In this document: piece after piece, positions 3,357 through 61,988 of the stretch | How positions within the stretch are numbered: the first letter of the stretch is position 1 | Layout of the letters: every line of letters starts with the position of its first letter | NCBI GenBank assembly: GCA_951406725.2 | Contig: OX597817.1 | Span: 50,592,001 to 50,656,000, forward strand | Length of the DNA stretch: 64,000 nucleotides | Reading direction: 5' to 3' | DNA from: Octopus vulgaris | Taxonomy: Eukaryota | Made by a program: the position numbers and the translations under genes | Notes under the pieces: model-generated | What the model was told of the DNA's origin: nothing | Seen by the model: only the letters and a program-made list of their open reading frames with translations | Databases searched by the model: none

Positions 3357-3970
3357 TATCCGTTTCTAGGTTTTTCATTTTTCAGATGTTCTTCCTAGAG
3401 GTAAGACAATTTATTCATGTTTGTTGCACACACGCATCTTTACTAGTACATACGCAGTGAAGCTATACATTAGCGTCGTATTTATTACGTTCGCTATTTT
3501 CCAGTAAATATCAGGGCTTCGTTGCGCCATTCATTTACTTTTATATGTATAATTTTACCCTCACGGGCTATCCTTTACTGGAAAGCAATACTCTCGTATT
3601 GCATTACTATTTTCATTTAAACTTCTTCACTGTTCTCGTTCTGTTAACGTTTTGGCGTTCAGACGAGTGTACTGGCATAGATGTGGCAACATTTGAAATA
3701 TTGTCGAGGCATATACGGCTGATGAAGATAAATCAAATATACGTTGGCAAACGTATTTTGAAGAATCTGAAACCGGTACTGCATTATCCGTTTCTAGGTT
3801 TTTCATTTTTCAGATGTTCTTCCTAGAGGTAAGACAATTTTTTTCATGTTTGCTGCACACACGCATCTTTATTAGTACATACGCAGTGAAGCTATACATT
3901 AGCGTCGTATTTATTACGTTCGCTATTTTCCAGTAAATATCGTTGCTTCGTTGTGCCATTTATTTACTTT
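3357..3970 (+). mobile_element. Hammerhead-bearing non-coding element, about 1.4 tandem monomers (429-nt period), in (TA)n
   Basis: 3357-3545 is repeated at 3786-3970, with a hammerhead between the copies. TA runs lie on both sides. Confidence 0.8.
3714..3783 (+). ncRNA. Type I hammerhead ribozyme
   Basis: tacgg-CTGATGA-agat[long hairpin tcaaatatacgtt ggca aacgtattttga]atct-GAAA-ccgg-TA-ctgca. Stem III is a minimal palindrome. Confidence 0.75.
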
Positions 3971-4167
3971 TATATATATATATATATATATATATATATA
4001 TATATATATATATATATATATATATATATATATATATATATATATAACTGAGAATACGTGTCTGTCTGTATGTATATATATATATATATATATATATATA
4101 TATATATATATATATATATATATATATATATATATATATATATATATATATATATATATATATATTA

Positions 4168-5210
4168 TATATATAAACGGCAGTTTGTCTGTCTGTGTGT
4201 CTGTGTGTCTGTCAGGTTGTACACTCACCCTGACCACGGTTTCAACCGATTCTGATGAAACTTGACACACACATAGCCCAATGTCATAATTCAAAACTAA
4301 CGATTTGTGTATTAAACACAAACCACAGACTGTCTAGGGGACGCAACTCGACCTTTTTAACTCTCGGAACACGTGGGGTAAGTATCCCAAAATGTATAAA
4401 AATGTACAAAAACGGCAAAAAAGCGGGCAGCAATGTGAGTTACAACAACGAAAAAGTCAAAAGTGACCAAACTGAACAAACGAATCGAAAAGGTTTTTTG
4501 GTGCACACGACAAAAGCGGTTTATAATAAACAAAGAGTTTGCAAGTAGCGTCCGAGGACCCTTAGGGTACGTCAAAAATTTAAGGTAAAACGTTTGGGGT
4601 GGTAGTTATAAAGAACTAGACAGTCTGTGGTTTGTGTTTAATACACAAATCGGTTTGCTATGTGTGCCACATGATTTAATTAACCGATTTTTTCCAGTAA
4701 TAAAGTATCCTATTGGAATAAAAAGGGCCATATAGCTCCTTGGAGCAGACAAGATGCTTGCTGTGAATTTAAAAAAAAATTCCTGCCAATTTGTGAAAGA
4801 TATTGTCGAAAATATGTCATCTTGAATTTGAACGCGATTTCCCAAAATGGCATGATTTTATCGATTTTTTCTGATGGTTAGGTATTGCATGGAAAACTAA
4901 CGCCAGAAATAAGTTTCTTAGCGTAACATTAAGCTTCACCACGAGTTTGGTGAAAACCGATCGCAAGTTGCGAAAACTACAACAGAAAATGTGTTGCATA
5001 TAAAAAGCTTAGATTCTCGACCCCATGTCGAATTTATCAATTTTTCTCAGAACTGGGGGAACTTTTCAAAATTTTCACTGCGTTAGTTTTGAATTATGAC
5101 ATTGGGCTATGTGTGTGTCAAGTTTCATCAGAATCGGTTGAAAGCCGTGGTCAGGGTGAGGGTACAACCTGACAGACACAGACACACAGACAGACAAACT
5201 GCCGTTTATA
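4168..5210. mobile_element. Two inverted Helitron 5' ends (fold-back, about 130-bp inverted termini)
   Basis: 4172-4302 is the reverse complement of about 5080-5210, and 4301-4337 pairs with 4616-4652. The same sequence forms the left end of the Helitron at 38880. Confidence 0.75.
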
Positions 5211-5695
5211 TGGATATATATATATATATATATATATATATATGTATGTATGTATGTATGTATGTATGTATGCACATACATATAGTCCAATGGGAACCAA
5301 TTTGATAGAGTGAAATGCAAATGGGTTTCCAAGTATCTAATTTCACACTCACATAAGCCTTACTTCAACGTTACGCGACGACTCATCTAACCAAGGTGCA
5401 GTTTTCTTTCAAGCTCCCTTCATATATATTCAATCCGGTTCGTTTTTTTGTTTAGCTATCGCTTTCATTCGATATATTCTACATATTCCGTCTGCGTGAC
5501 GTATTATGTATTTTTGAATTTGAAATATTCTAGCGTAGCTGGTTGTGTAATCATCATCGCTCGATATTTCATTAAATCTTTATTCCGTATTTATCTTTAT
5601 TGACCCGTTATCGACTACCTGATGTCGCTAAATTTCCTTATTTCGTCATCGATTTCCTTTCCAGATTTAGAATCTGATGCTACTAAATTGTTCAC

Positions 5696-5848
5696 GCACG
5701 GCTGCGTAGTTAAGACGTTCATTTTCCAACAAAGTGGTTTCGGTTTCAATCTCACTGTGTGGTATTTAGACAAATGTATTCTGCTTTAGTTCCGTGCCAA
5801 CCAATGCTTCTGACTGAATTTAGTAGACGGAAACTGTGTAGAATCCCT
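5696..5848 (+). mobile_element. Degenerate SINE A head
   Basis: Diverged match to the SINE A 5' half, ending GTAGACGGAAACTG. Confidence 0.55.
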
Positions 5849-6094
5849 TTGACTATATATATAGTAACCATAATCAGAAAACAAATTAGGCATTCAATGT
5901 TTTACAGGACGTAGACACGTTTCATCAAAATTTCGAAATATTTACATAAGAGTCGCAAATGCCAAGCACGATGAAGTGAAGTGTATGAATACGTAAATTT
6001 ATATAAATCTTATGTAATCAATTCAACATTTTGATGAAACGTGTGTACGTCCCCTAAAGCATTGAAGGCTACGCCTGTTTTCTACTTAGTTTCT

Positions 6095-59335: not shown

Positions 59336-60108
59336 AATAAAGATACATAATTTACACTAGTTAAACATTATGACCATGTTGTGTAAAACAATATCCCCAG
59401 AGAACCTCACCACAATATGCTGCAAAAATTAATAACGATCGCTGGCGTATCTATTCTTAATACGCTCCGGTAGATTCTGCTTATCTCTCATGCGCTTCGT
59501 CACAGAATAGCTTTTCCTTCACAGCGAAAATGGTTTCATAACACTCTTGATTCATTAGCTCAAGGAATTCTAGGACAGCAAGTATGTTGACATTGTTGTC
59601 ACTCGAGAATCAGAGGTAAACCGAACCTATGAATTTAACAAGGACAGATGCTCATGTTTATAACTGCAGTGAAAACTGTGTGCTGATCCGTACTGATGTT
59701 TGGCAACTGGAAATATTGCATCTTCTGTTTTGAAGTTAGCTCTAAGATATTAAAACGTGCATATTATGTAACCGTAAACATATGAATTTCGCAATAGGAA
59801 AACAGGCTGAGGCAAATTTTCCGATACATGTTTCTCCATTAGTTCAGTGCAGTTAGAATCCCAAAATACATATTCTGCGAGAAGAACACGCAAGAGAAAT
59901 TATAAAATAAGGTTACGCTCTTTAACACTGTTCATAAGTGACATATTACGGATTTAATTCTTTTCAAAATGATATTCTATCAAAAGTTATTTCAAATTCA
60001 AGCCATCTTTGAGTAAATTACCTATTACGTTCAACATTAACATACAATATGGTTCCATGTTATCTGTCATTCCTATGGAATGAATAAGAATAGGTAACAG
60101 CAACATAG

Positions 60109-60598
60109 TGGAGGCGCAATGGTTCAGTGGTTAGGGCAGCGGACTCGCGGTCGTAAGAACGCGGTTTCGATTCCCAGACTGGGCATTTTAAGTGTTTATT
60201 GAGCAAAAACACATAAGCTCCACGAGGCTCCGGCGGGGGAAGGTGAGAACCCCGCTGTACTCTTTCACCACATCTTTCTCTCACACTTTCTTCCTACTTC
60301 TGCCGCAAAGCAGAGGAACCATGGTGTAACCCACTATACTGTGATAAACGTTCAGACCCTAGTCTAGATTGCGAATCCTCTGTATCCCAGGATGGTTCAG
60401 CTCTCCACCCGTTAAAAGCCACCCTTTACGGAATGAGGATAACAACGTAGATTTCGCGCCCGTGCAACCGCCAGTTTATCGCGCGTGGTGAGTGGATCTT
60501 CAAGTTGCCACACGCATTCTTAGTAGCTTAGAGTAGGCTCGAATTAGAGATTATTCTTTGTGGCTGATGGCGTGAGTCGTGATTGGAAGAAGAAGAAG
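60109..60598 (+). mobile_element. SINE B (tail type 5, (GAA)n end) with 12-bp TSD
   Basis: TSD ACAGCAACATAG at 60097-60108 and 60599-60610. Confidence 0.85.
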
Positions 60599-61440
60599 AC
60601 AGCAACATAGGGAAGGCGCGTGACCCTTCGGCTAGGGTGTTAGAACCATGATCGGAAGACCCTGGCTTCGATTCTTGGACGAAATGGTGCGGTGTGTTCG
60701 TGAGTAGAAAACTTCATTCCACATTCCTCTAGCCCAGTAAATGAGTGACCCTGCGTGTGCCCGATATTCCGTTCAGAAAGAGCGTGTGATTTCAGTATTT
60801 TATACGACATAGGAAGCGTGTAAACGGCTCAACGAATTCTTGGACTCGAAACTGCACTTACCACTAATATAACAATATCAATTCAAACAATTATTCACTA
60901 CGCATTTGGTATTTTGCCGAAATCAAAAATCAATAATACACAGAACTGGATTCCTTCAATGCCTTTAACGAGATTAGAAGCGAAGGACATTGTATTCAGA
61001 AGCATACAATGAGTCGTCACGTTATCCGATTCCATGATTACATTAATCGTTGTGTTCATGTTTGGCTAAAAACGGACACAAAAGGGCTGGAATAGGTTTC
61101 ACAAGTGTTTATCAAAGCCGCTGGACAATATGGATATGACTTTTGTCAAATAACTTTTTAATGTGTTTGATCTTCGTCCGAAACGTTTACTTTTTTCTGT
61201 TCAATTTCTTTTTTTTTTTTTTATTTACAATGAGCTATCTCGTAGGTAAAATTCCAGAAATGTGGATACATCTGAATAAATATTTACTCAACACCGCCCA
61301 CACCGAAACACACACACGCACACACACACACAGACACTCACGCATTTGCAACCACACACACATATGTATATATACACACATTTATACGCATATATATATA
61401 TATATATATATACGCATGTATATATATATATACATATATT

Positions 61441-61764
61441 AATCAATATAGGGTGGCAAAAAAATTTTGTAGAATTCTTTTGCCACCAGCGGCCTAGTAG
61501 GAAAAAATTAAAATAGTCATAGACCATTTTTAAGTTCAACATCAACAATAAAGGAACGGCCATAATAGGCCATTCACCCACTAGAAATAACAGCCAAAGC
61601 TTCAACCGCAAATAAAAGTTAATTCAGTAAACCAGGAGAAAATTTAAAAACATTTACCCTGTAATTTCTTATACGATATACCGTTTCATCTGCTGATTAA
61701 TGGTAAACTAACCTGATTAAATTAAATCAAGCCAATCTTCCACAGGCCCTCAGATTCATCAGTA
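61441..61764 (-). mobile_element. Hammerhead-bearing element between TA runs
   Basis: Minus-strand 3' end CTAGGCCGCTGGTGGCAAAAG...TTTTTGCCACCC forms a hairpin. The 5' junction is 2 nt before the CTGATGA. Confidence 0.72.
61668..61764 (-). ncRNA. Type I hammerhead ribozyme (stem I 5' strand clipped)
   Basis: Minus strand: ta-CTGATGA-atctg[long loop]cagat-GAAA-cgg tata tcg-TA-taag. Confidence 0.68.
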
Positions 61765-61870
61765 TACATATATATATATACGCATTTGCACCCACACTAC
61801 ACACTCCCCTGAAGTGCATATACATATATATGTATATATATATATATATATATATATATATATATATATA

Positions 61871-61988
61871 GGCTCGAAACGTTAAAGACTTGTTTTATTT
61901 ATATTTCCTGAGCGCCATACTAATACAATTGTTTGTTTGTATTCCACCTGCCTTCGTCTTTTGTCTATTTTCATAAAGCTTCCCGTTA
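61871..61988 (+). mobile_element. pLTR-like 3' fragment starting inside a hammerhead
   Basis: (TA)n|GGCTC-GAAACGTT-aaag... The body is related to the reverse complement of 19871-19965 (TTTCCTGAGCG..TTTTCAT..CGTT|ATATA). Confidence 0.55.

Follow-up and report, generated by a model that had tools for sequence, protein, structure and literature searches.

Candidate hammerhead retrozymes and Hydra-clade Penelope-like elements at TA microsatellites in a 64,000-nt stretch of the Octopus vulgaris genome

Hammerhead ribozymes have been published in Penelope-like elements (PLEs; PMC4209133) and in metazoan retrozymes (PMC7229834), and a PLE origin of retrozymes was put forward from 31 vertebrates, 3 insects and 1 coral (bioRxiv 10.64898/2026.07.22.740005). 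The present analysis concerns 64,000 nucleotides (nt) of Octopus vulgaris DNA (assembly GCA_951406725.2, contig OX597817.1; G000:C4:50592001-50656000), hereafter the window, and its relatives in the genome of 2.80 Gb (227 contigs, about 30 of them large). A sequence-only reading had proposed that the window holds a swarm of non-coding, hammerhead-carrying retroelements aimed at (TA)n. It was supported in part: the PLE/retrozyme identity and (TA)n as target stood, and we consider it likely that the elements are Hydra-clade PLEs together with non-coding hammerhead passengers, copied through RNA by a PLE protein into (TA)n.

Metazoan non-LTR retrozymes (LTR, long terminal repeat) resemble the octopus units in being non-coding head-to-tail units, some hundreds of bases long, with one type I hammerhead each, low in GC, present as monomers to multimers and proposed to be non-autonomous PLE derivatives (PMC7229834; bioRxiv 10.64898/2026.07.22.740005). 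In these two papers the link to PLEs is drawn from co-occurrence and phylogeny of the PLE pseudo-LTRs (pLTRs), two families are described, as against about 25-30 clusters in 1 Mb of octopus DNA, and the text covered contains no cephalopods, TA targeting, inverted arms or fixed long and short ends. Unlike the retrozymes of these papers, the octopus units often have long stem II loops and a stem III of 3-6 bp. Hydra-clade PLEs, including Hydra-1_Obim (Craig et al. 2021, PMC8557442), share with the coding octopus elements the RWK motif, a DKT reverse transcriptase (RT), CxCX5C, a C-terminal GIY-YIG domain, a hammerhead close to the 3' end, (TA)n as insertion target, copies in partial tandem or inverted form and a tail. 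Nearly all families of that clade insert into (TA)n and carry hammerheads, and the supplement of the same paper includes an octopus Hydra element of this kind. It lists one octopus Hydra family, whereas the present genome has a family that is very young, has dozens of frames still intact and is accompanied by non-coding passengers; octopus 3' regions measure 1-3 kb and tails 46-111 nt, compared with tails of 30-40 nt in the described clade. The Poseidon PLE of Anolis was studied in vitro (Frangieh et al. 2024, PMC11167929) and agrees with the octopus elements in AT-rich nicking and extension on both strands and in having two sites of internal initiation, downstream of the hammerhead, that delimit the genomic tail; cleavage by its hammerhead requires protein, and insertion does not need the ribozyme. 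Poseidon used its own coding RNA, whereas the octopus has monomers without an open reading frame (ORF) and a strict fold-back rule of one long and one short end. The octopus families belong to known kinds and show better mechanistic traces than the published cases. No octopus retrozyme study was found in the literature searched, although supplements could list octopus motifs, and in the main text of a 2026 octopus repeat annotation (PMC13282606) the words 'ribozyme' and 'hammerhead' are absent.

Relatives of the window elements were collected as 150 family loci, from which 9 duplicates were removed by hand for the end statistics; families are lettered and located in the list below. Each of eight families has two fixed end points, which lie 42-288 nt downstream of the predicted cut and never at the cut itself. 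The short and long ends fall 200/266 (A), 148/231 (B), 106/190 (C), 173/219 (D), 177/288 (E), 150/254 (F), 42/112 (G) and 132/238 nt (H) past the predicted cut. TA adjoined 125 of 137 3' ends; for inverted ends the figure was 66 of 83 and for plain 5' truncations 28 of 55, as against 4985 of 174,389 control positions (2.9%); in the window itself each 3'-type end lies at a TA or TA-rich run, as had been claimed. Tandem units run on into monomer sequence at the same fixed points, so the aligned copies mark TA as the target and not as part of the template. Both ends were scored in 81 fold-backs, 59 of which had both at fixed points; a long end was paired with a short one in 58 of these 59 (37/37 long 3' ends with a short partner, 21/22 short 3' ends with a long one). 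The rule held in the coding family G (8/8) and likewise in the non-coding families, with arms of 0.1 to about 10 units each. Fold-back and permuted-tandem anatomy, noted before in the window, was seen in the family loci as well, and all eight families bear the insertion signature of endonuclease-positive PLEs (5' truncation, partial tandem, inverted 5' copy, a tail at one end, microsatellite target). Different families are stacked in one TA tract at window 19179-20270 and at two further loci (L107, L191), which is what a shared target predicts.

Hammerheads were sought with a descriptor for type I, which required the core boxes, three or more pairs in each of stems I and II, a short or palindromic stem III and a base other than G at the cut. 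Nine motifs were found at eight places in the window, with C3 at 3719 (+), 16481 (-)/16537 (+), 18980 (+), 23136 (+), 28891 (-), 33827 (-), 43532 (-) and 61762 (-), compared with a mean of 0.145 and a maximum of 2 in 200 block-wise dinucleotide shuffles, which confirms the excess over AT-rich controls. They comprise eight of the nine sites proposed from the letters and one mirror; the ninth, at 48806 (+), was accepted only by a relaxed descriptor, since its core and stems I and III are complete while stem II has just 2 bp. At least nine sequence-divergent elements had been counted; they form eight families, because those at 28837 and 33773 are 82% identical. Most cores are complete or nearly so, as described, except that truncation has removed the 5' strand of stem I from the 61.7-kb copy, and private stem mismatches occur in those at 3.7 kb and 23.1 kb. 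The 16.5-kb mirror passes the descriptor; that of 18974 breaks off within stem I. Among the sites called degenerate or half cores, 19643 is a decayed family I copy and 61871 a half copy, whereas at 45200 a 5' half core was missing from both of two relatives. The motifs have the core boxes, three stems, cleavable NUH and 5' and 3' ends in stem I of type I hammerheads, and an intact motif was present in 123 of the 150 loci.

In about 1 Mb of DNA, 284 motif hits fell into 30 clusters, some of them chance singletons. In forty arbitrary 10-kb stretches 27 motifs were counted, spread over 19 places, compared with 1.35 in 20 shuffles; two of these places look like chance and one array supplies seven motifs. 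This amounts to 67 motifs per Mb (bootstrap 35-110), and the window, with 140 per Mb, is about twice as dense. Extrapolation gives an estimated 1-3 x 10^5 motifs in the genome; published counts, obtained with other descriptors, are about 5000 in mussel and 126,247 in axolotl (PMC7229834). Core conservation was measured in 17 homology-found relatives of families B, C, D, E, F and G (none from A or H), 74-88% identical, three of which are close copies with an inflated alignment distance: 9 of 187 core positions were changed, compared with 697 of 4036 others. Compensatory stem changes were observed among the homology-found relatives of families B, C, E and F. The elements of the window are as follows, where retrozyme denotes that families A, B, D, E, F, H and I are non-LTR retrozymes by sequence definition.

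3357 to 3977, plus strand: family A retrozyme with a monomer of 428 nt, present as 1.45 units, its short end at (TA)n; in this copy the hammerhead (C3 at 3719, predicted cut after 3778) has a weakened stem I.
16339 to 16762, both strands: family C fold-back, spliced, 5'-truncated, probable 3' end of a Hydra-type PLE; left arm (minus) ends at the short point, right arm (plus) at the long point; hammerheads 16481 (minus) and 16537 (plus); exon junction between 16523 and 16524.
18529 to 19179, both strands: family D retrozyme, 353-nt monomer; inverted arm (minus) 18529-18787 with the long end, direct arm (plus) 18784-19179 with the short end; hammerhead 18980, with U at position 3.
19265 to 19412, minus strand: second family D piece, 5'-truncated, in the same TA tract, without hammerhead.
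19540 to 19697, minus strand: family I copy, monomer about 222 nt, G at the cleavage position; hammerhead of the minimal PLE type with an extra base between 9 and 10.1.
19872 to 20066, minus strand: second family I copy, hammerhead partly deleted.
22770 to 23376, plus strand: family E retrozyme with a monomer of 546 nt, present as 1.1 units, with the short end; hammerhead 23136, predicted cut after 23200, private mismatch at the base of stem II.
28600 to 29221, minus strand: family B retrozyme, monomer about 470 nt, 1.3 units, long end; hammerhead 28891, predicted cut 28843.
33541 to 33975, both strands: diverged family B copy; direct arm (minus) 33541-33896 with the long end and hammerhead 33827, inverted arm (plus) 33900-33975 with the short end.
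43228 to 43644, minus strand: family F retrozyme with a monomer of 499 nt, a single 5'-truncated arm with the long end; hammerhead 43532, with A-C at the base of stem II as the family state.
44855 to 45225, minus strand: repeat family K, older, relatives 76-89% identical, 3' half core only, membership unverified.
48664 to 48877, both strands: family G fold-back, truncated pLTR ends of an autonomous Hydra-clade PLE; minus arm with the long end, plus arm with the short end; hammerhead 48806 with 2-bp stem II.
61430 to 61764, minus strand: family H retrozyme, 492-nt monomer, 5' side cut inside stem I, long end; core 61762, predicted family cut site 61672.
61871 to 61986, plus strand: family J half copy, 3' half core; J is related to family I.

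In its long form, family C contains a GT-AG intron, measured in 10 loci at 1078-1458 nt, that stops 9 nt short of stem I; the window copy continues directly across the intron site. Exact spliced junctions outnumber unspliced acceptors by 242 to 65, and such precise intron loss shows an RNA intermediate with spliceosomal processing. A spliceosomal pLTR intron ending just 5' of hammerhead helix I is likewise present in Penelope of Drosophila virilis (PMC4209133, PMC2377424, PMC8557442), where it measures 75 bp, compared with 1.1-1.5 kb in family C. PLEs are usually described as retaining introns (PMC8557442), whereas family C is mostly spliced. About 1.7 kb further upstream, one long copy (L218) starts with 41 codons of a Hydra-type endonuclease C-terminus; the tblastn score of this piece is weak alone (E 0.013-0.26), and it has a 74% nucleotide match to a clearer endonuclease in L163. 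A complete ORF was not seen upstream of family C, which is read as probably the truncated 3' end of a coding Hydra-type PLE. An endonuclease ORF downstream of a family C part, in L205, was rejected as its coding region, since the C part of the query was covered by none of the 39 other best places; that piece belongs to another Hydra-like family and is truncated. At G000:C6:72319137-72319442, five acceptor motifs of unspliced family C follow one another at distances of 69-79 nt.

It might be held that these are DNA-level fold-backs or elements like miniature inverted-repeat transposable elements (MITEs), which adjoin TA and contain motifs by chance in a TA-rich genome. TA runs do number about 1100-1400 per Mb and adjoin other repeats too, and Rfam hammerhead models gave no match at gathering score in eight loci; among the 150 of 302 Rfam matches listed for the window there was no hammerhead, and microRNA models on AT repeats dominate. 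Motifs at 20-60 times the shuffled numbers, TA adjacency of 91% against 2.9%, unequal arm ends and a variable apex all speak against a DNA-level origin, and the spliced junctions contradict it, because they cannot come from DNA transposition. We regard this explanation as highly improbable.

Upstream of family G, an RT plus GIY-YIG frame was found, flanked by repeats of about 900 nt; a coding element of this kind that matches the units had been named as something to search for. The ORF carries RWK, DKT, the CxCX5C linker and, at its C-terminus, a GIY-YIG domain, and the frame was free of stops in 65 of 67 scored copies, at 97-100% identity. On sequence grounds, an intact Hydra-clade PLE has family G as its 3' end; the clade was called from diagnostic motifs and by-eye comparison with Hydra sequences including Hydra-1_Obim, an initial 'Neptune' label was dropped because the clade criteria fit Hydra, and Pfam gave no match for the ORF. 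The statement that the elements have no ORF thus fails at family level, since G is, and C probably is, a truncated 3' end of a coding Hydra-type PLE, with the C long form joining the endonuclease C-terminus, and G, as part of a coding RT plus GIY-YIG PLE, also removes the claim that all are non-autonomous. Hydra-like ORF pieces more remote from G, at 27-50% identity, occur in L217, L163, L105, L178 and L166, and one of these families gave 512 first-look candidates, which is not a copy number. Beside one Hydra copy lies a second, unrelated RT frame of 668 aa (L153:7593-9599). At one family G end (L152:4340-4360) a pyrimidine-AG stretch 10 nt before the core resembles the family C acceptor; no spliced copy was seen among the G copies examined.

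Every window site has dispersed relatives elsewhere in the genome, as the sequence-only reading would have it. The best 40 candidates were 99-100% identical in families C, F, G and H and 88-97% in A, B, D, E and I; first-look candidate numbers (338-3280) are not copy numbers and were unused as such. Exact core strings occur 12,013 times for I, 821 for H and 340 for D, with none for reversed controls, and nine such families make up about 1.5% of the sampled DNA. Head-to-tail periods, each with one hammerhead, are 428 (A), 467 (B), 353 (D), 546 (E), 499 (F), 492 (H) and 222 nt (I), those of A, B and I being taken from one or two full hammerhead-to-hammerhead intervals. Coding, GC and fold tests covered A, B, D (as a 376-nt variant), E and H. 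Methionine-initiated ORFs did not exceed 70 aa, GC was 32-35% in A, B, E and H and 46% in D, the longest internal TA run was 4-6 nt, and a stable circular fold was obtained for each of the five (z -3.8 to -5.8, 40 shuffles). Family H arrays reach 10 units and often diverge from a central apex. Family D cores with a spacing of about 1.4 kb (4 units) and of about 5.9 kb (symmetric arms) were observed at G000:C1:94322210-94326376 and C4:124124929-124137072, and could represent unspliced, insert-bearing or coding forms.

These units bear on a further explanation, in which all families are truncated pLTR ends of coding PLEs yet unseen and the arrays grew locally by unequal crossing-over. Such an origin is true of G and probably of C, the widely spaced family D cores would suit it, and local amplification is discussed for retrozymes (bioRxiv 10.64898/2026.07.22.740005). 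As a general account we judge it unlikely, given hammerhead-to-hammerhead units of 353-546 nt whose five tested members have no methionine-initiated ORF over 70 aa, and the many dispersed loci at which arms of several units flank a single apex on either side and end at fixed points in TA.

For the preferred reading, copying of passengers by a PLE protein, the following course is proposed. A tandem locus would be transcribed by RNA polymerase II, and its hammerheads, as dimers or aided by protein, would cut the multimer into monomers that circularise. The PLE protein would nick both strands of the self-complementary TA tract, reverse transcription would be primed on one strand from the long site and on the opposite strand from the short site, and synthesis would proceed 5'-ward through the multimer or around the circle. 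The two truncated 5' ends, joined head to head, would then give the fold-back; the ends fit PLE biochemistry in vitro (PMC11167929), which is why a fold-back is read as two opposite-strand priming events in one TA tract. The young Hydra family is the likeliest driver.

Several results weigh against this account. The loci were best matches to queries that included the element end, so complete copies were favoured, and in 22 of the 81 fold-backs at least one end lay off the fixed points. Families D (U3), F and G deviate from the canonical core or stem II, and several window copies are damaged. Stem III formed in none of the ten window motifs in minimum-energy folds, which is expected of monomers because such motifs are said to work as dimers (PMC4209133); of Xenopus retrozyme dimers, 1 of 9 was cleaved (bioRxiv 10.64898/2026.07.22.740005). 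Units within an array are about as diverged as copies at other loci, so a circular template is not singled out over a multimer. Poseidon inserted RNA without ribozyme activity in vitro (PMC11167929), and the retrozyme monomers do not resemble the ends of Hydra G or of C in sequence, so homology does not single out a driver.

The weak monomer folds, the uninformative divergence within arrays, ends never placed at the predicted cut and the insertion of ribozyme mutants in vitro (PMC11167929) would all suit PLE-driven insertion in which hammerheads merely ride along and the templates are uncut linear multimeric transcripts, without circles. Cores and stems kept across subfamilies 74-88% identical, the stable circular folds of the monomers and the abundant circles yielded by related mussel and axolotl retrozymes (PMC7229834) argue the other way, and we hold this version to be possible but doubtful. 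The missing homology between monomers and Hydra ends could also mean that the non-coding families are driven by another (TA)n-seeking clade, Neptune or Naiad; both prefer microsatellites (PMC8557442), and the second RT frame in L153 would suit such a driver. This seems rather unlikely to us, as Hydra family G shows the same long/short TA signature in many intact young copies, cephalopod Naiads are described as remnants (PMC8557442) and family C is linked to a Hydra-type endonuclease.

Other repeats were observed in the window. Pieces related to family H (one a fold-back) and to the family C tail lie at TA runs at 17820-18057, 23676-23778 and 37459-37550, without hammerhead. A further TA-flanked repeat, once an equal-ended fold-back, occurs at 20092-20270 and 49180-49330, and no hammerhead was found in it. 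A Pif1 helicase fragment (PF21530) at 39011-39709 probably belongs to a Helitron, and the frame at 40166-40558 resembles a piece of a mariner transposase. Three related short repeats at 4252, 5131 and 38962 contain CTGATGA and no hammerhead, and a 21/42-nt tandem repeat with several open frames spans 47393-47848.

A bolder view is offered tentatively. The octopus genome may contain about 10^5 motifs in tens of families, at more than ten times the axolotl density, with the retrozymes being spliceable circular RNAs for whose copying a Hydra protein, active at present, would prime internally at two sites from both TA strands. Each insertion would split a tract into two new targets and so help to build the TA-rich landscape, and many octopus repeats listed as 'unclassified SINE' (short interspersed element), MITE or unknown might be PLE passengers.

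The mobility of animal retrozymes is an open matter, as the PLE origin is concluded from phylogeny with the mechanism unresolved (bioRxiv 10.64898/2026.07.22.740005). Since ORF-less monomers share the two-site tail and the TA target with a coding PLE in the same genome, the octopus provides direct structural evidence for PLE-driven insertion. The same genome supplies an intact young Hydra protein together with exact predicted start sites, and the spliced family C questions intron retention as a rule for PLEs.

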